From assembly GCA_963762015.1 (NCBI GenBank), contig CAVXJL010000013.1, positions 27,709 through 91,708 of the forward strand: a DNA stretch of 64,000 bases. Reading direction: 5' to 3'. This document shows positions 12,745 to 50,225 of the stretch, one piece after another. Every line of letters starts with the position of its first letter. The first letter of the stretch is position 1. The notes below the pieces were generated by a model. The model was not told the origin of the DNA. It made no database searches and saw only the letters and a list, made by a program, of their open reading frames with translations. A program made the translations under genes and the position numbers. The stretch comes from an uncultured Actinomycetota bacterium. GTDB taxonomy: Bacteria > Actinomycetota > UBA4738 > HRBIN12.

Positions 12745-14996
12745 CCCAGGACCGGCTGCCGGTCGCGTTCGCCCTCTCCCTGATCGGGGGCGTACTGTCC
12801 TCGCTCGCCTTCCCGCCCGTCGCGGCTTGGCCACTCGCGTTCCTCGCGCCCGCGATCTTGCTCGTCGCGCTGCGCGACGCGACCCCCGCCCAAGGGTTCC
12901 TGCTCGGGCTCGCTTACGGACTCGTGGCGTTCGGGATCACGTTGTCGTGGATCATGCTCTTCGGCTCGCTCGCGTGGGGGGCCTTGACGCTGCTCACCGC
13001 CTCTTCGATCGCCCTGTTCGGCGCCGTGTTCCCACTCGTCCGCAGACCCGGCCGGCCCGTGGTCACCGCGCTCGGTGCGGCCGCCGTCTGGACGACGATG
13101 GACTGGCTCCGAGGACTCTGGCCGTTCGGTGGGTTCACGTGGGGCTCCCTCGGCGTGTCCCAGGTTCCGAACGGGATCACGGTGCGCGTCGCGGTGATCG
13201 CGGGCGTGTGCGGAGTCACGTTCGTGGTGGCGTTCGCGGCGGCGTTGCTCGCGGAGGCGGCCACCCGGGAGCGCTCCCTCGCACGGCGGGCTCGGGGAGT
13301 GGGGATCGCGACTCTCGTTGCTCTCTCGCCGATCGTCATCCCGTTCGCCGACGCCACCGGGCGACCCATCGACGTCGCGGCGATCCAGGTCGACTTCGAT
13401 GATGCCGTCAGGCATGGCTCGAGGGAGGACGGGGACATCGCGGTGACGAGGCTCAACCTCGACCTCCACCAGACGTTGATGGACCAGCCTCCCGATCTGG
13501 CCGTGTGGGGAGAGAGCGCGCTCGACCCCGGGTCCCTCGAGATCCTCGAGGAGGTCCGCGGCACCGTCTCGGAGGTGGGGGTACCTGTCCTCACCGGAGC
13601 TACGAGCCGAGACATCCGGGCCGTCGCCGGAGGCGACGACGGGACGCTGTTCAACCAAGCGGTCGTCTTCGACGGCGGGGGAGCGGTGGTGGACGTCTAT
13701 CGGAAGACCCACCTCGTTCCGTACGGGGAGTACATCCCGTGGAAGGCCGTCGTCGGCTGGATCCCCGCACTCGACCAGATCGCGTACGAGCTCACGCCGG
13801 GGGAGCGGGTGCACACCCTCGAAGTCCCGGGGCTTCCGAGGTTCGCGGCGCCGATCTGCTTCGAGAACAGCTTCCCCGGCCTCGACCGGGAGCTCGTACG
13901 ACAGGGCGCGCAGTTCCTGGTCATCCTCACGAACAACGCGGCCTACGACGAAACGTCCGCCTCCGCGCAACATCTCCAGATGTCGAGGATCCGCGCGATC
14001 GAGAACGGTCGATGGGTGGTGCATGCCGCGGTCTCCGGGATCAGCGCGTTCGTCGATCCGAGCGGTCGCACGTCTCAACGGACCGAGCTGTTCGAACCCA
14101 CACTGATCCGAAGGACGATCCGCGCATCGACCGATCGGACGCTCTACGTGCGCTGGGGCGACTGGCTCCCCATCGCGTCGCTCGCGTTCGCGATCGGGAT
14201 GGCGGCGGTGCCGCGGGGCCGTCGGAACGAGCGTCCCGCACCGGCGCCTCTCGACCCCGGCGCGCGCACCTTGGTGATCCTTCCCACCTACGACGAGGCG
14301 AAGACGATCCGCGAGGTCGTCACCGGTGTGCTGGCGCTGCCGGGGGTCGAGGCCCTCGTCGTCGACGACTCATCGCCGGACGGCACGGCGGGCATCGTGC
14401 GGGAGCTCATGGCGGGGGAGCCGCGGCTTCGCCTCCTGAAGCGTCCGACCAGGTCCGGGCTCGCGAGCGCCTACCTCGAAGGGTTCGACCGAGCGCTCGA
14501 GGAGGGCTTCGACCTGATCGTGGAGATGGATTCCGACCTCTCGCACGATCCCCGCGAGCTCGCCTCGCTGCTCGACGCGGCCCGCGATCGTTTCCACCTG
14601 GTGGTCGGCAGTCGTTACGTGCCGGGTGGGTCCGTGACGAACTGGAGCCGCGCCCGGCTCGCCCTGTCGAGGATGGGCAACATCTACGCCTCCGTGATGC
14701 TGGGCCTACCCCTTCACGACGCCACGAGCGGTTACCGCGTCTACCGCCGCGCCCTGCTCCAAGATCTCGTCGCGGACCCGTTCCACGCCGACGGCTACGG
14801 CTTCCAGGTGGAGCTGGTCATGCGCTCGTGGCTCCGCGGCTGGACGATCGGCGAAGTGCCGATCACGTTCAGGGAACGGGAGCACGGCCATTCGAAGCTC
14901 TCCCGTGGGATCGTGTTCGAGGCTCTCTGGCTCGTGACCCGCTGGGGCGTGGCTCTCAGGGTCCTCGGGCGGCCACATCGGGGCTTCCGCGCCTAA
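12741..14996 (+). CDS. ppm1: fused apolipoprotein N-acyltransferase (Lnt, CN-hydrolase) / polyprenol-monophosphomannose synthase (Ppm1, GT2); start codon uncertain
   Basis: Lnt membrane domain: the frame is open from 12612 and encodes LAFPPVAAWPLAFLA before the listed TTG at 12858. CN-hydrolase domain follows (CFENSFPG). C-terminal GT2 DPM synthase domain (LVILPTYDEAKTI...VVDDSSPDGT...IVEMDSDLSHDP); same two-domain architecture as M. tuberculosis Ppm1. Confidence 0.8.
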   Translation: MTQDRLPVAFALSLIGGVLSSLAFPPVAAWPLAFLAPAILLVALRDATPAQGFLLGLAYGLVAFGITLSWIMLFGSLAWGALTLLTASSIALFGAVFPLVRRPGRPVVTALGAAAVWTTMDWLRGLWPFGGFTWGSLGVSQVPNGITVRVAVIAGVCGVTFVVAFAAALLAEAATRERSLARRARGVGIATLVALSPIVIPFADATGRPIDVAAIQVDFDDAVRHGSREDGDIAVTRLNLDLHQTLMDQPPDLAVWGESALDPGSLEILEEVRGTVSEVGVPVLTGATSRDIRAVAGGDDGTLFNQAVVFDGGGAVVDVYRKTHLVPYGEYIPWKAVVGWIPALDQIAYELTPGERVHTLEVPGLPRFAAPICFENSFPGLDRELVRQGAQFLVILTNNAAYDETSASAQHLQMSRIRAIENGRWVVHAAVSGISAFVDPSGRTSQRTELFEPTLIRRTIRASTDRTLYVRWGDWLPIASLAFAIGMAAVPRGRRNERPAPAPLDPGARTLVILPTYDEAKTIREVVTGVLALPGVEALVVDDSSPDGTAGIVRELMAGEPRLRLLKRPTRSGLASAYLEGFDRALEEGFDLIVEMDSDLSHDPRELASLLDAARDRFHLVVGSRYVPGGSVTNWSRARLALSRMGNIYASVMLGLPLHDATSGYRVYRRALLQDLVADPFHADGYGFQVELVMRSWLRGWTIGEVPITFREREHGHSKLSRGIVFEALWLVTRWGVALRVLGRPHRGFRA

Positions 14997-15029
14997 CGAC
15001 CCGTCCGTCCGTGCGGCTGCCGACGAGAC

Positions 15030-15515
<486 letters not shown>

Positions 15516-15519
15516 CCGC

Positions 15520-15933
15520 ATGGACAACATCACGATCCACTCCAGCTTCCTGCCGCACAACGACCCGGAGGCCTCCTTGGCCTTCTTCCGTGACGTCCTC
15601 GGCTTCGAGGTCCGTATGGACGTCGGATACGAGGGGATGCGCTGGATCACGGTCGGCCCCCCCGATCAGCCGGGTACGAACATCGTCCTCTACCCGCCGT
15701 CCGCCACACCCGGCATCACCGAGGAGGAGACGCGCACCATCGCCGAGATGATGGCCAAGGGCACGTTCGCCAGTCTCCTGCTGGCCACTCCGGATCTGGA
15801 CGCCACATTCGAACAGGTGCAATCCACCGAGGCGGAGATCGTGCAGGAGCCGACCGACCAGCCGTACGGCGTTCGCGACTGCGCTCTCCGCGATCCCGCG
15901 GGCAACATGATCCGCATCCAGGAGCGATCCTGA
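15520..15933 (+). CDS. VOC family protein (glyoxalase/bleomycin-resistance/dioxygenase fold)
   Basis: Paired beta-alpha-beta-beta-beta modules; FFRDVLGFEV...RWITVGP...NIVLY and ...AGNMIRIQE; 137 aa. Confidence 0.8.
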   Translation: MDNITIHSSFLPHNDPEASLAFFRDVLGFEVRMDVGYEGMRWITVGPPDQPGTNIVLYPPSATPGITEEETRTIAEMMAKGTFASLLLATPDLDATFEQVQSTEAEIVQEPTDQPYGVRDCALRDPAGNMIRIQERS

Positions 15934-15957
15934 TCCGCACGGGGGAGGTGGTTCGAG

Positions 15958-16443
15958 ATGGCTGAGAAGAAAACCGCGAAGAAGACCACACGGACGTCCG
16001 GGAAGCGCACCAGCGCGAGCACGTCCGGGACATTCACCGCCGACGAACGGGCCGCGATGAAGGCTCGGGCCCAAGAGCAGAAGGCGGAAGCGCGCGCGAA
16101 CAAGAACAGGGCCGACGGGGAACGCGACCTGCTCGCGGCGATCGCCGCGATGACGGGACGCGATCGCGCCATGGCCAAGCGGGTCCACGCGATCGTCACC
16201 GCTGTCGCGCCGGACCTCTGGCCGAAGACCTGGTACGGGATGCCCGCGTACGCCAAGGACGGCAAGGTCATCTGCTTCTTCCAGGACGCGGCGAAGTTCA
16301 AAGCGAGGTACGCGACGTTCGGCTTCAGCGACGAGGCGAACCTCGACCAAGGCGCGCTGTGGCCAACGTCCTTCGCACTGAAGGACTTGACCGCTGCCGA
16401 AGAGAAGAAGATCGCCGCGCTCGTGAAGAAGGCCGTGCGCTGA
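15958..16443 (+). CDS. DUF1801 (YdhG-like) domain protein with Lys-rich N-terminal tail
   Basis: C-terminal part ([32 protein letters not shown]) resembles YdhG/DUF1801. N-terminus is KKT-rich low complexity; 161 aa. Confidence 0.5.
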
Positions 16444-16445
16444 CT

Positions 16446-18803
<2,358 letters not shown>

Positions 18804-18865
18804 AGGAGGCCACTCGCAAAGCCACCGTGAGACGAGTTCGCTCAGCCGTCCGGCTCGTCGTGCCC

Positions 18866-18893
18866 CTTCCCGATAACGTACATTATGTCACCT
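18866..18893. other. dif-like XerC/XerD chromosome-dimer resolution site
   Basis: CTTCCCGATAA-CGTACA-TTATGTCACCT. The core ATAACGTACATTATGTCA matches E. coli dif ATAATGTATATTATGTTA at 15/18 positions with the 11-6-11 arm/spacer layout. xerD lies ~30 kb away. Confidence 0.55.
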
Positions 18894-19169
18894 TGTCGGG
18901 AAGAGGGCCTCATGACTCTCGCGGACTCTCCCCTCCCTCCCGATCCAAGCTCGGGTCTTGGGCGGTCCCGGGGCGTTCTTGCTTCGGGGCAACGCGGATG
19001 CAAAGCTCGCCTTCGGCCCTGGAGAGAGGGACGTTCGGCGGAAGGCTTCCTTCTTTCGACCGATGTTCCCCTCCCCCGGCACTCGTAGGGTGTGTGGGTC
19101 AACCGGCCGATGGATGGACCGACGCGGATGACCGACCCGCCATGCGTGAGGCGGGACCCAGGAGGGGAC

Positions 19170-20804
19170 ATGAAGAGAGCGAAGCACCGGTCCGGCGCCC
19201 GACGGGGACTCGTTCTCGGGTCGATCATCGTGGCGATGCTGGCAGTGGGACAGGCCGGCATGGTGTTCGCGGGTGCCGTTCCACCGGTCGACTCCCCCGA
19301 GCCTGCGCCGGTAGACAACGCGCAGCCGTCGGTCGGAGTCGTGGAGCCGGTCATCCTCGATACCCGGTCCTCGAACGACGACGACGCCTCCGCCGTGGAG
19401 ACCAGCGACCAACTCCCCCCTGAGATCACCGACCCTGTCCCTCCAGAGGTCACCGATCAACTCTCCGAAGAGGTCACGTCCGTCGATCCGGAAGCCGGCT
19501 GTGGGGAGGACGTCGATCCGGTGACGTGCGACCCGGATGAGACCGACGCCGGCGAGAACATCCCGGTCCACGTCACCGAGGCGGTAGACGAGCCGACCCC
19601 GCCCGATCTGCAGGTCTCGAAGACCTCCGATGCGGACGGGATCCTCCAGGACGGCGACGACTTGCTGTACACGATCATCGTGACCAACGCGGGCGACGAG
19701 GAAGCGACGGGCGTCGAGCTCGTCGACATCCTGCCGCCGGGTGCGCAGGGCGTCACCTTCCCACCGTTCCCGACACTCGCCGGCAAGGCATGCATCGCCA
19801 CCAGCTCCGTGATGCCCGGCGGCGTGCCCCACGCGGAGGTCCGCTGTGGCCGGGTGTCCCTCGATCCGGGCGAGTCGGCAACCGTCACGGTGCGGGTCAT
19901 CATCGACAGCACCTATTGCGGTTCGATCACCAACGTCGTGGACGTCGAAGGCAGGAACGAGCCCGGGGTCAACGTCGGGGATGACAACCACGCCGAAACC
20001 ACAGACGAGGTCGCGTGCGTGCCGAGGATCCGGTTGTCCAAGGGCGGACCTTCGTTCGCGCATGTGGGCGACACGATCACGTATGTGTTGACCGCGAGGA
20101 ACAACGGAAGTGCCCGACTCACGAACATCGACCTTTCCGATCCGGGATGCGACTCGTCCCCCACGCTCGTCGACGACGGGAACGGCAACTCGACCTTGGG
20201 GGTCGGCGAGGTTTGGCGCTTCGAGTGCGACCACACCGTCACATCCTCGGACGGCAACGTCGTCCACAACGTGGCGACGGTCACCGGCGATCATGGGGGT
20301 GAAACCGTCAGGGACACGAACGCCCATGACGTCGACGTGATCCACCCGAGCATCGATCTCGAGAAGTCCGCGACCCCGACCTCCGGTCCGGCCGGCACGC
20401 TCATCGTTTACACCTACATCGTCACGAACACCGGAGACACCCCCCTGTTCGACATCTCCGTGTCCGACGACAAGCTGGGGGACGTGGGTGTCATCGCGAC
20501 GCTCGCGGTAGGAGCGACGGCGGAGCTCACCTCCCAGATCACGCTGGGCTCCTCCCCCATCACCAACGTCGCCACGGCCACGGGCGAGGACCGTCTCGGG
20601 AGAGCTGTCGATGACACGGACTCTGCCTCGGTCACCGTGGTGGCCGGCACAGGCGGTGGAGCCGGCGGCGATGGGACCGGCAGCGGCGGGAGCCCGTTCA
20701 CCGGATCGGACACGGACGGGCTCGCTGCGTGGATCGTGATCCTCGCCGCGGTGGGGTCGGTGCTCCTCCTCACCTCGCGAAGGCGATCGCAAGCGCGCGC
20801 CTAG
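19170..20804 (+). CDS. DUF11-repeat cell-surface protein 1 (signal peptide; C-terminal [ST]PFTG sorting-signal-like motif + TM + basic tail)
   Basis: ATG behind GGAGGGG RBS. Signal peptide MKRAKHRSGARRGLVLGSIIVAMLAVGQA. Repeated ...TYTI.VTNTG... DUF11 modules. C-terminus GSPFTGSDTDGLAAWIVILAAVGSVLLLTSRRRSQARA. Confidence 0.75.
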   Translation: MKRAKHRSGARRGLVLGSIIVAMLAVGQAGMVFAGAVPPVDSPEPAPVDNAQPSVGVVEPVILDTRSSNDDDASAVETSDQLPPEITDPVPPEVTDQLSEEVTSVDPEAGCGEDVDPVTCDPDETDAGENIPVHVTEAVDEPTPPDLQVSKTSDADGILQDGDDLLYTIIVTNAGDEEATGVELVDILPPGAQGVTFPPFPTLAGKACIATSSVMPGGVPHAEVRCGRVSLDPGESATVTVRVIIDSTYCGSITNVVDVEGRNEPGVNVGDDNHAETTDEVACVPRIRLSKGGPSFAHVGDTITYVLTARNNGSARLTNIDLSDPGCDSSPTLVDDGNGNSTLGVGEVWRFECDHTVTSSDGNVVHNVATVTGDHGGETVRDTNAHDVDVIHPSIDLEKSATPTSGPAGTLIVYTYIVTNTGDTPLFDISVSDDKLGDVGVIATLAVGATAELTSQITLGSSPITNVATATGEDRLGRAVDDTDSASVTVVAGTGGGAGGDGTGSGGSPFTGSDTDGLAAWIVILAAVGSVLLLTSRRRSQARA

Positions 20805-20832
20805 CGGGTCCTCACGGACGACCTGAGCACGG

Positions 20833-20862
20833 AGCGGGCCCCTCGGAGGCCCGTTTCGATCT
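20833..20862 (+). terminator. hairpin terminator after DUF11 gene 1
   Basis: CGGGCC-cctcgga-GGCCCG followed by TTTCG. Confidence 0.4.
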
Positions 20863-20888
20863 CTTCTCCCCACCAGCAGGTTTCTGTC

Positions 20889-20917
20889 TTGTGCATTCGG
20901 GGAACTTGCTTCACAAT
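20889..20917 (+). promoter_or_regulatory. putative promoter of DUF11 gene 2 (-35 TTGTGC, 17-bp spacer, -10 CACAAT)
   Basis: The same -35/17/-10 arrangement recurs upstream of gene 3 (23704-23732). Confidence 0.45.
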
Positions 20918-21090
20918 CGGGCTCCTCCGAACGGACTACGCACGTCGGTCCGGATGGAGTCTGGCCATTCGCCCGATGGTCTCCCCCGGGTGAGGAGGAT
21001 ACCGTCGGGCGGAAGGACCTCGTTCTACGCCGTAGGACGTGGGCCCCGTTGATAGTCGATCGACACATGAGATCACCTGGGGAGGTAGAG
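20918..21090 (+). promoter_or_regulatory. conserved ~170-nt 5' leader of DUF11 gene 2 (candidate cis-regulatory RNA)
   Basis: Blocks CCGAACGGACTAC, GGCCATTCGCCCGATGgTcTCCCCCGGGtGAGG, CCGTAGGaCGtGGGCC and GGGGAGGTA (RBS). All are shared with the gene-3 leader and partly with gene 1. Confidence 0.45.
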
Positions 21091-23532
21091 ATGAGAACCA
21101 GAACCGACATGGGACGGGGCCGGCGCGGCAAGCGAGGGCTCGCGTCCTTCGTATCGTTCCTGCTCCTGTTCGCGTTCGCGCTCGGAAGCAGTTCATTGGT
21201 CGCGCTGGCGGACAACGGCGGCGCGAAGGGGAACAAGAAGGCTGTCTCGAGTGATGAGACGCTACCCGTGGCCGAAGCACCGGCCGACGAAGCCCCCGCA
21301 GAGGAAGCTCCGGCCGAGGAAGCTCCCGTAGAAGAGGCTCCGGCCGAGGAAGCTCCGGCCGAGGAAGCTTCCGTAGAAGACACCGACGCGGGAGCCTCCA
21401 CCGAGGGCACCACGCCCACGGGCCGAGCCGCACCCAAGGCCAGCCAGTTCAAGACCGCGAGCGCAGGCCGCGGCGCCGGGATCCTGAGCCACGGTGGACT
21501 CCACGGCGGTGATGTCTCGCTCGACTTCGTCGCAGCCGGACCGTTCACCTACGACCACAGCACCGGCCTGGGCACGCACCCCCAGTTCGGATACGACAAC
21601 CGCACCATCAGTAAGACGAACGGGGTCGTGGAGTCGCTGGAAAGCGGCGACTTCGAGTGCGGTGATCTCGTGACCTTCTTCGTGCAGGTCGTGATCGCTG
21701 AGGATGCAGAAGGCAGCGGCACCGTCGAGCTCGACTTGTCGTTCGGCGCCGAGACCACGGGCCAGCCCGGCCTCGGCTTCGACAACATCGTCAGCTACGG
21801 GATCAACACCCCCGACGACGGCAATGTCGGGAACGTGGGCGACAACGTCGTGACCGCCAGCCCGCCCAACGGGGCCATCGAGACCTCGGGCTACGACGAA
21901 TTGAAGGCGACCCTCACGGTGACCAACCTCGCCCCCGGTGAGACCGCCATCGTTCGAGTGACGGTCCACCTCGAATGCGAGGTCGGGGCCAGCCCGACCG
22001 GCAACATCCTCAATTCGATCGAGGCTGCCCGCGCGGACGGCGAGAGGATCTCCGTCGGACAGCAGACCGTTCCGATGAAGCAGGTCGGTGGGATCGACGC
22101 AGCGCCCGCGATCGATGTCACCAAGGACTGCCCCGCGGCGGTGGGTGCCGGCGAGGAGATCACGTACGAGATCACGGTGACGAACACCGGGAACGTGGAA
22201 CTGACCAACATCACGGTCGTCGACGACATCATCGGCGATCTATCGGGTGAGTTCCCGGACACCCTCGCCGTGGGATCCGATCCCGTCACGGTGGAGGTGC
22301 AGTACACGCCGGCGCCGGCGGACGGCGACCCCGTCACGAACACGGTCACCGCGACCGGCGACTGGGACGCTGGCGAGACCAGCGATTCCGTGTCGGACAC
22401 CGCCGAGTGCACCACGGACATCACCCACGAGCCCGGGATCCTGGTCGTCAAGGAATGCCCAGAGTCGGTGCCGTTCGGTGAGGACGTGACCTTCACGATC
22501 ACCGTCACGAACACCGGCAACGAGGCCCTCGAGAACGTCCTCGTGACGGACGAGCTCCTCGGTGGGGACATCACCGCGGACTTCGACTTCGCGGATCCGT
22601 TCCCGGTGGGCGGCGAAGAGTCAGCCGAGTTCACGTACACGCCGGGACCGAACGAGGACCCGGTGGAGAACTCCGTCACCGCTTCGGGCGACGGTGTGGA
22701 CTCCGAGGTCACCGCGACCTCTACGGACGACTGTGACACCGACGTCATCCACGCACCGGCGATCGAGGTCACCAAGGCCTGTCCGGCTCTGGTGGCATCC
22801 GGTGAGGACGTGACCTTCACGATCACCGTCACGAACACCGGTAACGAGGACCTCGGGAACGTTTCCGTGACGGACGAGCTCCTCGGCGGGAACATCACCG
22901 ATGCCTTCGGATTCGGGGAGACGTTCGCGGCCGGAGCCGAGGTATCCGCCCAGTTCACCTACACACCAGGGGCGGACGAAGATCCCGTGGAGAACTCCGT
23001 CACCGCTTCGGGCGTCGGGGTGCACTCCGAGATCACGGTGACGTCTACGGACGTGTGTGTCACCGATGTCTCGAACCCGGCCATCCAGATCGTGAAGACG
23101 GTCAGCGAAGAGATCGTCCCCGTGGGAACCACGGTGACCTACACCTACGTCATCACGAACACCGGCGACGTGACGCTGTACGACATCAGTGTCGATGACG
23201 ACATCATGGGGCACATCGGGGACATCCCCGTCCTCGAGCCCGGGGTCTCCGTGACCCTCACGAAGGACTTCGTGGTGGGCGACGAACCCGTCCTCAATGT
23301 CGGCACGGCCGTGGGCGAGGACATCCTCGGCCGGGTCGTGAGCGACGACGACGACGCGTTCGTCAGTCCGATCGCCGGCGAGAACCCGCCGAACCCCCCG
23401 AACAACCCCCCGACGCCCTTCACGGGCTCGGACGCGGGCCGGCTCGGGCTCATCACCCTGATCCTGGCCGGGATCGGCGTGACCGTGGTCGCGTCGACCC
23501 GCAGGCGCCGGCCTGAGCGGGAGGCCGCATAA
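21091..23532 (+). CDS. DUF11-repeat cell-surface protein 2 (signal peptide, Ala/Glu/Pro-rich linker, DUF11 repeats, TPFTG sorting-signal-like C-terminus)
   Basis: ATG after GGGGAGGTAGAG. (AEEAP)n low-complexity stretch. Repeated ...VTFTITVTNTGNE... modules. C-terminus NPPNPPNNPPTPFTGSDAGRLGLITLILAGIGVTVVASTRRRRPEREAA. Confidence 0.8.
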   Translation: MRTRTDMGRGRRGKRGLASFVSFLLLFAFALGSSSLVALADNGGAKGNKKAVSSDETLPVAEAPADEAPAEEAPAEEAPVEEAPAEEAPAEEASVEDTDAGASTEGTTPTGRAAPKASQFKTASAGRGAGILSHGGLHGGDVSLDFVAAGPFTYDHSTGLGTHPQFGYDNRTISKTNGVVESLESGDFECGDLVTFFVQVVIAEDAEGSGTVELDLSFGAETTGQPGLGFDNIVSYGINTPDDGNVGNVGDNVVTASPPNGAIETSGYDELKATLTVTNLAPGETAIVRVTVHLECEVGASPTGNILNSIEAARADGERISVGQQTVPMKQVGGIDAAPAIDVTKDCPAAVGAGEEITYEITVTNTGNVELTNITVVDDIIGDLSGEFPDTLAVGSDPVTVEVQYTPAPADGDPVTNTVTATGDWDAGETSDSVSDTAECTTDITHEPGILVVKECPESVPFGEDVTFTITVTNTGNEALENVLVTDELLGGDITADFDFADPFPVGGEESAEFTYTPGPNEDPVENSVTASGDGVDSEVTATSTDDCDTDVIHAPAIEVTKACPALVASGEDVTFTITVTNTGNEDLGNVSVTDELLGGNITDAFGFGETFAAGAEVSAQFTYTPGADEDPVENSVTASGVGVHSEITVTSTDVCVTDVSNPAIQIVKTVSEEIVPVGTTVTYTYVITNTGDVTLYDISVDDDIMGHIGDIPVLEPGVSVTLTKDFVVGDEPVLNVGTAVGEDILGRVVSDDDDAFVSPIAGENPPNPPNNPPTPFTGSDAGRLGLITLILAGIGVTVVASTRRRRPEREAA

Positions 23533-23553
23533 ACACCCGAGAAGCGCGAGCAT

Positions 23554-23590
23554 GGGGCGGGGTCCGAAAGGGACCCCGCCCCTCCCGTTT
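23554..23590 (+). terminator. strong hairpin terminator after DUF11 gene 2
   Basis: GGGGCGGGGTCC-gaaa-GGACCCCGCCCC (12-bp stem, GNRA loop) followed by a T-containing tail. Confidence 0.55.
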
Positions 23591-23703
23591 CTCCCCCAAG
23601 AGACCCCACAGTGGTGGCGAAGGGGAACGCTCAGGCCTCCGTCCAAGCACGTCCACTCGATGGATCCGTCGATCCGTGCTCGTTTTCCACCAGATCTCTA
23701 GTA

Positions 23704-23732
23704 TTGCGCAATCCGGATACTTCCTCCACAAT
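23704..23732 (+). promoter_or_regulatory. putative promoter of DUF11 gene 3 (-35 TTGCGC, 17-bp spacer, -10 CACAAT)
   Basis: Same architecture as the gene-2 promoter. Confidence 0.45.
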
Positions 23733-23907
23733 CGATGTCACCCGAACGGACTACTTCGTCCGCCAGGAACAGTCGGGCCATTCGCCCGATGCTGTCCCCC
23801 GGGCGAGGGATATAGCGTTCGGTAGGCGGACCACGCTCTTCACCGTAGGGCGGGGGCCGCATCTATCGGTCAAGTGAAGCGCACCACACCAGTTGGGGAG
23901 GTACGGG
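23733..23907 (+). promoter_or_regulatory. conserved ~175-nt 5' leader of DUF11 gene 3 (candidate cis-regulatory RNA)
   Basis: Contains CCGAACGGACTAC, GGCCATTCGCCCGATGcTgTCCCCCGGGcGAGG, CCGTAGGgCGgGGGCC and GGGGAGGTA. Confidence 0.45.
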
Positions 23908-26900
23908 ATGGGAACCAGATCCAATGGGGGGCGTAGTCGCGGCACCAAGCGGGGACTCGCTTCGTTCGTATCGTTCGTTGTGCTGTTCGCGCTCGCGCTC
24001 GGACAGGGCAGCTCGTTGATCGCGTTGGCGGACGACGCCAGCCGCAGCACGGCACTTCCGTCGGCGCAGCCGACCGGTGCGGCTCCGTCCACCGACCAAG
24101 TCAGTGGCGACACAGGGACCTCGTCTGACGACGGGGCTTCCACGACGTCTCGGACAGCGCCCAAGGTCAGCCAGCGGAACACCGCAGCCGCTGGACGCAC
24201 CGGTGCGCTTGCGGCCCCCCCGAGCTCCGGGTTCGACGGCGGGGACATCAGCCTCGACTTCGTCGCGGCCGGTCCCTTCACGTACAACCACGACACGGGA
24301 GTCGGCGGCGCCTACAACAACCGTACGATCAGCAAGACGACGGGTGTCGTGGAGTCGCTGGAGGGCGGCGACTTCGAATGCGGTGACCTCGTGGTGTTCT
24401 TCACGCAGGTCGTCGTCGACAACGGCGCGACCGGCACTGGAAGCATCGACATCGACTACGCGTTCGGCGCGGAGACGACCGGCCAGCCGGGGATCGGCTT
24501 CGACGACATCGTGAGCGTCAGCGTGAACACCAGCGACTCGGGCAATGTTGGCCTGGAAGGCACCGAGACGGCCACGCTCATCGCCGAAGGCACCGGAACG
24601 ATCGGTGGCAGCGACGCGGTCACCGGCACCGTTCGGGTCACCGGGCTCAACGCCGGCGAGCACTTGATCGTCCGCACGGTCGTGCATCTCGGGTGCGATG
24701 TCGGCGCCTCTCCGACCGGCAACATCCAGAGTGCGGTTCCTGCCGCAAGGGTTGTCCTGCCGGAGGCGGACACGATCTCCGTCGGCAACCAGACGATCCC
24801 GTTCAAGAAGGTCGAGGACGTCGCGCAGCCGGGCATGAACGTCACCAAGACGTGTCCTGCGTTCTCTCAGGTCGGCGACGTCATCACCTACAGCATCTCG
24901 ATCCAGAACACGGGCAACGAGACACTCAACATCACGAGCGTCGTGGACACGGTGAACGGCCACAGTCCCGTGAACATCACGGCCTCGTTCCCGGCAACGG
25001 TCGCGGCCGGAGCCACGGTCACCAGGACCTACGAGTACACGGTGGTGGCCGCCGATCCGGATCCGCTGCCGAACTCGGTGACGGTGACGGCCAAGGGAGC
25101 CGTCTCGCAAGTGACGCTGACCGGATCCTCGTCCTGTGAGACCGACATCCTCAACCCCGACATCAAGGTCACCAAGACCTGCACGGACTTCGCGCAGGTC
25201 GGTGACGTGATCACCTACACGATCACGGTCGAGAACACCGGGGACGAGACCCTGAACGGCGTGACCGTGATGGACTCCTTGCTCGGGAACCTGTCGGGCT
25301 CCTACGACGACGTGTTCTCCCCAGGCGAAGAGGAATCGCACGACTTCACCTACACGGTCACCGAGAACAGCCCGGACCCGGTCCCGAACACGGTGACCGC
25401 CTCGGGCACGGGTGCCACCTCCAACGACACCGTGACCGACACGGCGTCGTGCTCCACCGACATCCTCAACCCCGACATCAAGGTCACGAAGACCTGCACG
25501 GACTTCGCGCAGGTCGGTGACGTGATCACCTACACGATCACCGTCACGAACACGGGTGATGAGGACTCTCGAGGGCATGACCGTCGATGACACGCTGCTC
25601 GGCGACCTCTCGGACGACTTCGCCGACACGTTGGCGGCCGGTGACTCGGAGTCCCACGACTTCGACTACCTGGTCACCGAGGACAGCCCGGACCCGGTCC
25701 CGAACTCGGTGACCGCGACGGGCACGGGCGTGACCTCGGAAGAGATCGTGGATGACACGGCGCGGATGCTCGACGGAGATCCTCAACCCCGACATCGATG
25801 TCACGAAGACCTGCACGGACTTCGCGCAGGTCGGTGACACGATCACCTACACGATCACCGTCACCAACACGGGTGATGAGGATCTCGAGGGCATCACCGT
25901 CGATGACACGCTGCTCGGCGACCTCTCGGACGACTTCGCCGACACCTTGGCGGCCGGTGACTCGGAGTCCCACGACTTCGACTACCTGGTCACCGAGGAC
26001 AGCCCGGACCCGGTCCCGAACTCGGTGACCGCGACGGGCACGGGCGTGACCTCGGAAGAGGTCGTGGATGACACGGCCGGATGCTCGACGGAGATCCTCA
26101 ACCCCGACATCGATGTCACGAAGACCTGCACGGACTTCGCGCAGGTCGGTGACACGATCACCTACACGATCACCGTCACCAACACGGGTGATGAGGATCT
26201 CGAGGGCATCACCGTCGATGACACGCTGCTCGGCGACCTCTCGGACGACTTCGCCGACACCTTGGCGGCCGGTGACTCGGAGTCCCACGACTTCGACTAC
26301 CTGGTCACCGAGGACAGCCCGGACCCGGTCCCGAACTCGGTGACCGCGACGGGCACGGGCGTGACCTCGGAAGAGGTCGTGGATGACACGGCCGGATGCT
26401 CGACGGAGATCCTCAACCCCGACATCGATGTCACGAAGACCTGCACGGACTTCGCGCAGGTCGGTGACACGATCACCTACACGATCACCGTCACCAACAC
26501 GGGTGATGAGGATCTCGAGGGCATCACCGTCGATGACACGCTGCTCGGCGACCTCTCGGACGACTTCGCCGACACCTTGGCGGCCGGTGACTCGGAGTCC
26601 CACGACTTCGACTACCTGGTCACCGAGGACAGCCCGGACCCGGTCCCGAACTCGGTGACCGCGACGGGCACGGGCGTGACCTCGGAAGAGGTCGTGGATG
26701 ACACGGCCGGATGCTCGACGGAGATCCTCAACCCCGACATCACGGTGACCAAGTCGTGCCCCGAGTCGGCGACGGTGGGTGACACGATCACCTACACGAT
26801 CACCGTGACCAACACGGGTGATGAGGATCTCGAGGGCATCACGGTCGAGGACTCGTTGCTCGGCGACCTCTCAGACTCCTTCGCGGACACGCTCGATGTG

Positions 26901-27836
26901 GAGGAATCGGAGTCGCACGACTTCACCTACACGGTTACCGCCCAGAGCCCGGACCCGGTCCCGAACACCGTGACCGCTTCGGGCACGGGAGTGACCTCGG
27001 AAGACACCGTGACCAACACCACGTCGTGCTCCACGGACGTGCTCTTCCCGGCGATCAACATCGTCAAGGACGGGCCGGCCCTCGTGCACCGGGGCGACAC
27101 GATCACCTACACGTTCGAGGTCACCAACCCCGGTGAGGTCGAGCTGTTCGACGTCGAGCTCTCCGACCCGATCTGCGACGAAGGCACGATCGAGCCCGGT
27201 GAGGACGTGGACTCCAGCCTGGCGGTCGGCGAGGTGTGGCACTTCACGTGCCTGCACCTGGTCACCGACGAGGACCCGGACCCGATCCCGAACACCGGGA
27301 CCGTCCGTGGCGACACGGAGGAGGGCGAGGGTGGCGAAGAGGTCGAGGACAGCGATGACCACCTGGTGGACATCATCAACCCCGGCATCGACATCCTGAA
27401 GACCGTCGACGAGGAGATCGTCCCGATCGGTACCACCGTGACGTTTACCTACGTCGTTACCAACACCGGCGACACCACGCTGTATGAGATCAGCGTCGAC
27501 GACGACATCCTGGGTCACATCGGGGACATCGCCGTCCTCGAGCCGGGGGACTCCGCCACGCTGACCAAGGACTTCGTGGTTGGTGACGAGATCGTCACCA
27601 ACGTCGGCACCGCGACGGGCGAGGACGTCCTCGGTCGCTCGGTGAGCGCCGATGACGACGCCACCGTCACTCCGATCGCCGGTGAGAACCCGCCGAACCC
27701 GCCGAACAACCCCCCGACGCCCTTCACGGGCTCGGACGCGGGCCGCCTGGGCCTCATCACGATCGTCCTGTTCGGGATCGGCGTGACCGTGGTCGCGTCG
27801 ACCCGCAGGCGCCGGCCGGAGCGTGAGGCCGCGTAA
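23908..27836 (+). pseudogene. DUF11-repeat cell-surface protein 3 (~1300 aa if corrected); two +1 frameshifts at ~25568 and ~25757 inside a tandem-repeat array
   Basis: Signal peptide and N-terminal domain homologous to gene 2. Reading continues in frame 2 (25556-25837) and frame 0 (25752-27836). The C-terminal ~150 aa and TPFTG+TM+RRRR tail are almost identical to gene 2. Confidence 0.7.
25132..27021 (+). repeat. tandem array of ~6 x 315-bp units (each one 105-aa DUF11 module); 3-4 central copies essentially identical
   Basis: Unit CSTEILNPDIDVTKTCTDFAQVGDTITYTITVTNTGDEDLEGITVDDTLLGDLSDDFADTLAAGDSESHDFDYLVTEDSPDPVPNSVTATGTGVTSEEVVDDTAG repeats with period 315 bp (e.g. 26077, 26392, 26707). 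Flanking copies are diverged. Confidence 0.85.
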
Positions 27837-27853
27837 CGGGAAGCACAGCGAAA

Positions 27854-27900
27854 GGAAAGGGGGCGGGATCCCAACCGGGATCCCGCCCCTTTCCTTCTCT
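27854..27900 (+). terminator. hairpin terminator after DUF11 gene 3
   Basis: GGAAAGGGGGCGGGATCCC-aacc-GGGATCCCGCCCCTTTCC followed by TTCTCTT. Confidence 0.5.
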
Positions 27901-27915
27901 TACCGGGTCAGACCC

Positions 27916-37741: not shown

Positions 37742-37818
37742 GGTCGGGCCGGCCGGATTCGAACCGGCGACCTTCTGACCCCCAGTCAGACGCGCTAACC
37801 AAGCTGCGCCACGGCCCG
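37742..37818 (-). tRNA. tRNA-Pro (anticodon GGG)
   Basis: Cloverleaf folds by hand: acceptor CGGGCCG/CGGCCCG, D-arm GCGC/GCGC, anticodon stem TCTGA/TCAGA with loop CTGGGGG (U33, GGG), T-arm GCCGG-TTCGAAT-CCGGC, discriminator A. Confidence 0.85.
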
Positions 37819-49280: not shown

Positions 49281-50225
49281 TCACGCGCGCACGCGGCGCC
49301 TGGCGCGAGGATGCGACTCGTCGTAGACCTCGCGCAGGTGCCTGGCGGTGACGAGCGTGTAGATCTGTGTGGTCGCGACGCTCGCGTGGCCGAGCAGCTC
49401 CTGCACGACCCGGACGTCCGCGCCCCTTTCCAGGAGATGCGTCGCGAAGGAATGACGCAGGGTGTGCAGGGTGACCCGCCGCTCGATCCCGGCGAGCCGC
49501 ACGTATCGACCGAGGATCCGCGCGCAGCTCTGGCGTGACAGGCGGTCGCCCCGCGCGTTCAGGAACACGGCGCCTCGGCTGCCCTCGGTGGCGAGCGCGG
49601 GGCGGCCGCAGGTCAGGTACGCACCCACCGCCTCCCGGCCGAACGAACCGAGCGGGACCTCCCTCTCCTTGCCCCCCTTCCCGAGGACACGGACGCTCCC
49701 CTCCTCCAGGTCGATGTCGTCCACGTCGAGTCCGGTGAGCTCCGAGATCCGCAGCCCCGAGCCGTAGAGCAGCTCGAGGATGGCTCGGTCCCTGATCCCG
49801 ATCGGAGTCTCCTCGTCCGGCGCCTCGAGGAGGCGCCGGACGTCTTCGAGGGGGATCGGCCGTGGCAAGGATCGAGGCAGCCGCGGCAGCGGCACGCCCG
49901 CGGCGGGGTCGAGGTCGGTCACTCCTTCCCTGAGGAGGAACCGATGGAACGACCGAACCGCAGACAGGGTCCGCGCGACCGAGCTGGCACGGTACGGGGC
50001 CTCGTCGGGACCGTGCGTCGATGCGGACAGCGAGGCGACGAAGGAGCGGATCGTCGCCTCCTCGACAGCTCCGGGCTCATGCAGATCTCTGCGCGTGAGA
50101 AACGCGACGTATCGGCGGAGATCCCTCCGGTATGCCGACAGCGTGTGCTCGGACAGCCCCCGCTCGACTGCCAGGTGGTCGAGGTAGCGCTCCGCCTCCA
50201 CCGCCAGCCCGGCCGCCACCGCCAC
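49281..50225 (-). CDS. xerD: tyrosine recombinase XerD
   Basis: N-terminal core-binding domain (ERGLSEHTLSAYRRDL). Catalytic R...HTLRHSFATHLLERGADVRVVQELLGHASVATTQIYT with Tyr. Start set at an internal GTG because the listed ORF carries an Arg-rich extension. Confidence 0.8.
   Translation of the reverse strand: MAVAAGLAVEAERYLDHLAVERGLSEHTLSAYRRDLRRYVAFLTRRDLHEPGAVEEATIRSFVASLSASTHGPDEAPYRASSVARTLSAVRSFHRFLLREGVTDLDPAAGVPLPRLPRSLPRPIPLEDVRRLLEAPDEETPIGIRDRAILELLYGSGLRISELTGLDVDDIDLEEGSVRVLGKGGKEREVPLGSFGREAVGAYLTCGRPALATEGSRGAVFLNARGDRLSRQSCARILGRYVRLAGIERRVTLHTLRHSFATHLLERGADVRVVQELLGHASVATTQIYTLVTARHLREVYDESHPRARRRVRA

Follow-up and report, generated by a model that had tools for sequence, protein, structure and literature searches.

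The 28-bp sequence at positions 18866-18893 (plus strand) of the 64-kb stretch of DNA analysed here (the window) is, with high confidence, a predicted chromosomal dif site of an uncultured soil lineage of Actinomycetota, and its flanks are evolutionarily plastic. Dif is the site at which XerC and XerD resolve chromosome dimers. The site itself is almost certainly an ordinary and well-known kind of feature, with a widely shared, resistance-like cassette lying directly against one of its edges; two distant lineages have the cassette flush with the XerC arm. The site can serve as a confident terminus marker for a soil actinobacterial family known only from MAGs, and such a marker helps scaffolding, replichore assignment and assembly checking. 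The series that runs from ppm1-dif-gcvP, through the addition of a DUF11 cluster, to the addition of a UvrA2 cassette and its decayed forms can be read as a record of DNA build-up around dif.

The 28-mer reads CTTCCCGATAACGTACATTATGTCACCT. It is composed of an XerC-side arm, CTTCCCGATAA (18866-18876), a 6-bp central region, CGTACA (18877-18882), and an XerD-side arm, TTATGTCACCT (18883-18893), all given on the plus strand; the arms were assigned according to the E. coli paradigm and the register of Kono et al. (2011; PMC3025954). An 11-6-11 site centered on CGTACA had been proposed at this position by the sequence-only reading, and the letters are exactly those that it gave. The layout and the inner ATAA/TTAT cores, which form a palindrome, can be read directly from the sequence. 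Compared by hand with E. coli dif (GGTGCGCATAATGTATATTATGTTAAAT), the 28-mer is identical at 18 of 28 positions overall and at 15 of 18 over positions 8-25, the latter being the same figure as was claimed earlier for the E. coli core. The pattern CCGATAANNNACATTATGTCA was matched a single time in the 64-kb window, where no match would be expected even with three mismatches allowed. The site starts 62 bp past the stop codon of a UvrA-like gene (18803), and the likely start codon of the first DUF11 gene (ATG at 19170, with AGGAGG ahead of it) is found 276 bp past the site.

Dif sites have been predicted for 66 actinobacterial genomes with the Frankia alni sequence CACGCCGATAATGCACATTATGTCAAGT as the seed (Kono et al., 2011; PMC3025954), where earlier actinobacterial predictions by Hendrickson and Lawrence (2007) are also cited. 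As of 2011 there was no experimentally confirmed actinobacterial dif (Kono et al., 2011; PMC3025954), and the reference set for our scoring matrix is therefore itself a set of predictions. The matrix has 21 columns, was built from 42 published actinobacterial dif predictions and is independent of the relatives of the window. On this matrix of predicted sites the window dif scored 38.8 bits, which places it inside the range of the 42 published sites (28.3-44.4 bits, median 40.3, leave-one-out); a comparison with actinobacterial dif sequences had been suggested when the site was first proposed. To our knowledge, no actinobacterial dif has been experimentally validated. The 28-mer also agrees at all 18 specified bases of the core CCGATAA-NNN-ACATTATGTCA, which is near-invariant among the predicted dif sites of Frankia, Mycobacterium, Nocardioides and other genera and is identical in, for example, the Frankia alni sequence. 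The window clade differs from these predicted sites in its outer arms, which are particular to it (TTCCCCGATAA ... TTATGTCACYT), and in two bases: the central region begins with C, and position 26 is C rather than A. The uncultured lineage of the window is not included in the published actinobacterial surveys.

No second dif was found in the 64-kb window in full-site scans with either the published-site matrix or a clade-specific one. The runner-up position scored -1.6 bits on the former (the maximum over 20 shuffles of the window was 4.6) and -6.8 bits on the latter, again within the shuffle maximum. Half-sites were not enriched in the window and related loci (8 matches to the half-site matrices vs 12.6 expected), and no second site or half-site beyond chance was seen in the window or in any relative. 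The earlier statement that the window holds no second, degenerate copy is thus borne out by next-best scores within shuffle maxima and by the half-site counts. One candidate half-site, TCATGTGACCA near 15062, matches the XerD arm at 8 of 11 positions; it was rejected, as it lies in the start region of an AraC gene and is not kept in L018 or L024.

Conservation was examined at loci retrieved with the lnt-ppm1 fusion gene (12858-14996, plus strand; Pfam LNT_N, CN_hydrolase and Glycos_transf_2; NCBIfam lnt), which lies about 3.9 kb upstream of dif. Among species-representative genomes this anchor gave 27 loci, in which protein identity reached 94%; 26 are MAGs of uncultured Actinomycetota or Actinomycetes, and the most distant (L027) belongs to Agrococcus lahaulensis. 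Four loci were uninformative, three of them truncated at the end of the gene and the fourth being the distant Agrococcus match, which covers the glycosyltransferase domain only. In all 23 informative genome loci the 28-mer is present on the same strand downstream of lnt-ppm1. The alignment of relatives carries about 2 bits of information per column within the 28-mer vs 0.1-0.5 bits immediately to either side. With a clade-specific form of the motif, 28 metagenome contigs were matched, and the 27 that could be placed all share the context of the window, with ppm1 or remnants of the cassette as the left neighbour of dif. The presence of one genomic context in 27 of 27 placeable contigs argues for a single copy of dif per genome. 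In the 18 cassette-free genome loci (17 plus L023), dif is located 22-70 bp past the end of the ppm1 match and 15-43 bp past the stop codon, and from this comparison of sequences the ancestral order is taken to be lnt-ppm1, a spacer of 15-43 bp, and dif.

The site is kept in outgroup loci that have no DUF11 cluster (L058, L060, L063, L069, L074, L081 and L083), and it is kept whether or not the cassette intervenes between ppm1 and dif; it is therefore tied to neither neighbour. These observations bear on the reading of the 28-mer as a transcription-factor operator, or as a 3'-end or terminator element of the DUF11 operon, ppm1 or uvrA2, which we regard as extremely improbable. Such a reading would fit the invariably intergenic location of the 28-mer upstream of the DUF11 cluster in the clade of the window, its usual position just past ppm1, and the very stable hairpin (z=-5.98) in which the window copy sits. 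However, an operator of the DUF11 genes is excluded because dif persists where the cluster is absent, in the outgroup, and a 3' element of ppm1 is excluded because dif persists where 1-4 kb separate it from that gene; in addition, the hairpin is not kept in relatives, and the 28-mer contains the phylum-wide dif core, which is found in genera with unrelated gene neighbourhoods. The hairpin corresponds to an extended imperfect palindrome (repeat I1; 18862-18908, plus strand) that engulfs dif and in which the XerC arm pairs with 18893-18903. Folded as RNA it gives -27.3 kcal/mol. As a general feature of the site it was rejected, since it is specific to the window (relatives have a mean z of -0.52, with 7 of 50 below -1.64).

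A different hairpin, terminator-like and followed by a T-rich tail, is found at 18955-18974 (plus strand; 1 found vs 0.1 expected), between dif and the first DUF11 gene, and its sequence is partly conserved in close relatives. Dif had been described as lying in the leader of this DUF11 gene. It does lie upstream of the gene; that it forms part of a leader is unproven, because the hairpin separates the two. A promoter scan of 18600-19300 returned no promoter-like site, and Rfam and tRNA scans gave no match near dif; the sole RNA gene detected in the window is a tRNA-Pro(GGG) between pgsA and der (37742-37818, minus strand).

The gene map places the site in a region of converging gene orientation. 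Based on GC3-filtered ORFs and Pfam matches, 15 genes to the left of 27.9 kb are on the plus strand and 3 on the minus strand, and the minus strand carries all of the credible genes to the right; the plus-strand genes meet this unbroken minus-strand run at 27837-27915. In the window this switch is 9 kb to the right of dif, beyond the DUF11 genes. In the outgroup (about 56% Ppm1 identity), which does not have the DUF11 cluster, the order is ppm1(+), dif, gcvPB(-), so that dif lies exactly at the point of convergence. The block on the right includes gcvP, gcvH, pgsA, der, cmk, scpB, scpA, an XerD gene, pyrG and recN, and that on the left helY, an M24 peptidase gene and ppm1. In Mycobacterium tuberculosis H37Rv we take recN-pyrG-xerD-scpAB-cmk-der (Rv1696-Rv1713) and ppm1/helY (Rv2051c, Rv2092c) to lie on opposite sides of the terminus, and the dif of strain CDC1551, at 2,229,973, presumably falls between the Rv1696-Rv1713 block and the Rv2051c-Rv2092c block. 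The latter position is a published prediction for CDC1551 (Kono et al., 2011; PMC3025954). Equivalents of both M. tuberculosis blocks converge on the window dif.

Local GC skew weakly backs the terminus reading. In the 64-kb window it is -0.002 to the left of dif and -0.041 to the right, the left arm thus being near zero rather than positive, and 17 of 19 relatives likewise have the lower value on the right side of dif. The change point is poorly localized (12.5-55 kb within 2 log-likelihood units, over the 64 kb examined). With 64 kb of genome examined and weak evidence from skew, one might consider the 28-mer a decayed, dif-like duplicate of a functional site located elsewhere in the genome. 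We find this highly improbable, given that more than 50 related sequences have the 28-mer at an orthologous position, sharply conserved and invariably in a single context, and that it is found at the convergence of gene polarity and has a score typical of published predicted sites.

A gene for an XerD tyrosine recombinase is encoded in the window, 30 kb from dif (49281-50225, minus strand, start codon approximate; Pfam Phage_integrase and Phage_int_SAM_1). The ORF passes the NCBIfam XerD equivalog TIGR02225 (333.4 bits, cut-off 329.6) and scores 326.9 bits against the XerC equivalog, under the cut-off of 335.15; its best match among solved structures is E. coli XerD (1A0P, E=2.5e-65). The gene context is pyrG-NUDIX-Ald-xerD...scpA-scpB. 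A Pfam screen of the approximately 55 GC3-filtered ORFs of the window returned no XerC or second Xer-type gene. The earlier proposal, a dif site in the terminus region, agrees with four observations: the 28-mer fits the phylum consensus, it has a sharp conservation footprint at an orthologous position, gene polarity converges, and the window encodes this XerD gene.

If the site works as dif does in E. coli and other XerCD systems, XerC would bind the left arm and the XerD encoded at about 49281-50225 the right arm. After replication, septal FtsK would bring sister copies of dif together and activate XerD; strand exchange by both recombinases at the borders of CGTACA would then convert a dimeric chromosome into two monomers. 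The features shared with the dif/XerC/XerD/FtsK system of E. coli are the 28-bp 11-6-11 site, the ATAA/TTAT palindrome, a better conserved arm on the XerD side, an XerD homologue encoded nearby, and a location where blocks of gene orientation converge. The window site differs in its outer arms and central region.

The XerD side of dif is occupied by four genes for DUF11/DUF7507 repeat proteins (19170-27836, plus strand; Pfam). A DUF11 cluster of two to six genes follows dif in every relative of the window clade, including one with 56% Ppm1 identity; the outgroup alone lacks it, and there the next gene past dif is gcvPB, on the minus strand. Since the cluster is clade-wide and absent from the outgroup, it either was inserted long ago on the XerD side or has been lost by the outgroup, and judged by this distribution it is an old, clade-level neighbour of dif rather than a recent arrival. 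We propose that the cluster joined dif on its XerD side in the ancestor of the clade. The suggestion that adjacent accessory DNA arrived by Xer-mediated integration is, in its canonical form, not supported for the cluster, which is a conserved neighbour of dif throughout the clade and has no second dif at its flank. The DUF11/DUF7507 genes share internal repeats, and the number of genes (2 to 6) varies between relatives. Transcription of the cluster would be head-on to replication if the forks meet at dif.

The XerC side carries accessory DNA. Immediately past lnt-ppm1, the window retains a ppm1-dif spacer (cgaccc...; 14997-15021, plus strand) that resembles the empty-site spacers of L003 and L004, in which the equivalent sequence directly precedes dif. 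An inserted cassette follows (15022-18865, plus strand), composed of a 5' flank, four genes and a 3' flank. Domain searches identified the genes, all on the plus strand, as those for an AraC protein (approximately 15066-15515), a VOC/glyoxalase-fold protein (15520-15933), a DUF1801-like protein (15958-16443) and a UvrA-like class II ATPase that falls below the cut-offs for true UvrA (longest ORF 16359-18803, likely start 16410-16497); the labels given earlier to the AraC, VOC, UvrA-like and DUF11 genes were correct by these searches. The non-coding 3' flank (62 nt; 18804-18865, plus strand) adjoins the XerC arm. The AraC-VOC-UvrA2 block had also been described as lower in GC; it is, but barely (0.679 vs 0.684 for the window). 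The 5' flank, between the ppm1 stop and the AraC start, contains a perfect 11-6-11 inverted repeat, CGTGCCACGTC-ccgtgc-GACGTGGCACG (15029-15056), which is exact in L001 and L024, occurs as a variant in L002 and is absent from Micromonospora. Its sequence is unrelated to dif, and an AraC operator or a ppm1 terminator is the probable reading.

The cassette is complete in the window, L002, L018 and L067, decayed in L001, L024, L070, L084, L059 and L078, and absent from others, among them the equally close relatives L003, L004 and L005; where it is absent, ppm1 is followed by the spacer of 15-43 bp and dif. The accessory nature claimed for this block is thus confirmed by close relatives with an intact ppm1-dif junction, and, from these comparisons, the AraC-VOC-DUF1801-UvrA2 block is a real, patchy insertion. 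In the cassette-bearing genomes the old spacer (cgacc...) is found to the left of the cassette, and the 3' flank runs into an intact XerC arm. With the spacer to the left of the cassette and only one XerC arm present, the point of insertion is placed at the outer edge of the XerC arm and not in the central region. In our proposal the cassette would have entered at this edge in some lineages, including that of the window. The 5' flank of the L018 cassette resembles the Micromonospora version and not that of the window, which hints that the cassette may have been acquired more than once at the same spot. Decay seems to have proceeded by repeated deletion, mostly with loss of UvrA2 and with DUF1801 left beside dif; L001 has kept only the last ~60 nt of uvrA2, and L070 has fragments of every cassette gene.

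Similar cassettes are widespread. Relatives of the UvrA-like protein with about 90% identity were found in Micromonospora, Acidimicrobiia and many metagenomes. Nine other genomes were examined. The unit AraC-VOC-(PNPOx, DUF1801 or a second VOC)-UvrA2 was present in eight of them, in neighbourhoods that are otherwise unrelated, and the ninth (L093) has the UvrA-like gene only. In seven of the nine, dif was not found within 6-8 kb of the cassette. In the other two, a dif of the Micromonospora family type, AGATTCGATAA-TGTACA-TTATGTMAAGT (cf. Salinispora), is found downstream of the cassette, at a distance of 624 bp in M. kangleipakensis and 2606 bp in Micromonospora strain NBC_00898. A non-coding 3' flank of ~60 nt (...gacgagttctctc.tctgtttcgactcgtcc...) is conserved in L086 as well as in Micromonospora and the MAG family. 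Each of the two Micromonospora genomes has a copy of the end of this flank flush with the XerC arm, despite the different dif arms; in L086 the flank stops at the same nucleotide position though no dif follows. In M. kangleipakensis a first copy of the flank is followed by ACGGTCGATAC, which matches the XerC arm at 7 of 11 positions, then by 545 bp of unrelated DNA, and then by a second copy of the flank and the full dif. The insert between the XerC-like remnant and dif corresponds to L085:10470-11018. Judged by its sequence, this duplication may be an IMEX-like footprint, in that genome and not in the window.

Third-codon identities were compared between the copies. For AraC, the identity between the window and Micromonospora (0.86) is higher than that between the window and L002 (0.78) or L018 (0.76). 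For UvrA2, third-codon identity is star-like, with 0.76-0.92 for all pairs; we rejected it as proof of recent transfer, as it may just reflect the 93% GC3 and the 90% amino-acid identity. AraC and the non-coding flanks are more informative in this respect than UvrA2 third-codon identity. The UvrA-like protein itself (window 16359-18803, compared with P0002-P0120) is unusually uniform across distant hosts, with star-like distances.

IMEX elements integrate at dif by means of the host XerCD, and one could take the window dif for the right attachment junction of such an element, with the cassette or the DUF11 cluster brought in by XerCD and the second junction since lost. As in IMEXs (CTXphi, TLCphi, the gonococcal genetic island), integrase-less accessory DNA that is absent from close relatives lies beside dif. 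The cassette is truly accessory, with empty sites in close relatives; it encodes AraC, VOC, DUF1801 and UvrA-like proteins and no recombinase, is found as a unit in many Actinobacteria, and has a conserved 3' flank that ends exactly at the XerC arm in both the window and Micromonospora, where the dif arms differ. The arrangement in M. kangleipakensis, with a flank copy, ACGGTCGATAC (7/11), 545 bp, and then a second flank with the full dif, would also fit. Nevertheless, we consider this origin distinctly unlikely. IMEXs have two dif-like junctions and integrate in the central region; neither the window nor any cassette-bearing relative has a second dif-like site or half-site, and the old spacer on the left and the single XerC arm point to insertion at the outer edge of the arm. 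Moreover, the XerC arm beside the cassette is of the recipient type and not of the Micromonospora type, no phage, plasmid or other replicative or transfer genes were recognized among the cassette and DUF11 proteins, seven of the nine other sampled genomes lack dif within 6-8 kb of the cassette, and the DUF11 cluster has been kept beside dif across the clade. The canonical IMEX signature (a second dif, a duplicated arm) is, from the sequences compared, absent at the window dif, and the Xer-mediated integration suggested by the sequence-only reading is not upheld in its canonical form, as insertion took place outside the XerC arm.

Some link between the cassette and dif is possible, because the tight association recurs in Micromonospora. 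A rather unlikely proposal is that the AraC-VOC-x-UvrA2 cassette could be a mobile module whose insertion point is the outer edge of the XerC arm of chromosomal dif, without duplication of any dif arm. This idea is based on the abutment of the cassette on dif in both the MAG family and Micromonospora, with differing dif arms, on the Micromonospora-like 5' flank of L018, from which repeated acquisition at one spot may be suspected, and on the 3' flank ending at the same position in L086, which has no dif there. On Acinetobacter plasmids, resistance genes occur in pdif modules, with pdif sites in inverted orientation at both ends. The window cassette would be analogous to these in that a resistance-like gene set (UvrA class II, a VOC/bleomycin-resistance fold, AraC) lies beside an XerC/XerD-binding site and in that cassettes of this type occur in several unrelated genomic contexts; it differs in touching the site on one side only and in that the site is the chromosomal dif. 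If the mobile-module reading is true, the association with dif would differ from that of both known IMEXs and pdif modules. Should targeting rather than coincidence account for the flush contact seen at the XerC arm of two distant lineages, it would point to a new route to dif, a universally conserved site, as a landing pad for resistance-type genes.

Several further observations concern dif sites in other genomes. In L006 and L025 (12144-12154 in each) the lnt-ppm1 frame enters dif and ends on the TAA of the XerC arm (CCCCGATAA); coding sequence thus overlaps the recombination site in these two loci, because the ppm1 frame stops inside the XerC arm. In two outgroup loci (L060:6252-6296 and L069:6861-6905) the XerD arm is followed by 6 nt (tgcagg) and then by another XerD arm, near-identical to the first and directly oriented, to read TTATGTCACCT ... 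TTATATCACCT. The contig with the doubled arm has about 1.1 kb before gcvPB, vs the usual ~0.3 kb, and the doubling may be the footprint of a past event at dif. The core CCGATAA-NNN-ACATTATGTCA was also found in 29 IMG/VR "viral" contigs (L028-L056) of 33-71% GC, in several cases near the contig end and with no second site in any of the 29; these could be prophage calls beside a host dif, or elements with an Xer site of their own.

In the two Micromonospora genomes, a gene for a tyrosine recombinase is located 0.4-1 kb to the right of the chromosomal dif (L085:11443-11470 and L089:13965-13992). The start codon of the recombinase lies inside an 11-6-11 inverted repeat, which is perfect in L089 (GTCATGCATAA-TATCCC-TTATGCATGAC) and has one mismatch in L085 (ATCCTGCATAA-TATCCC-TTATGCATGAT), where an AlkZ-like gene follows. 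The pairing of recombinase and repeat recalls single-recombinase Xer modules.
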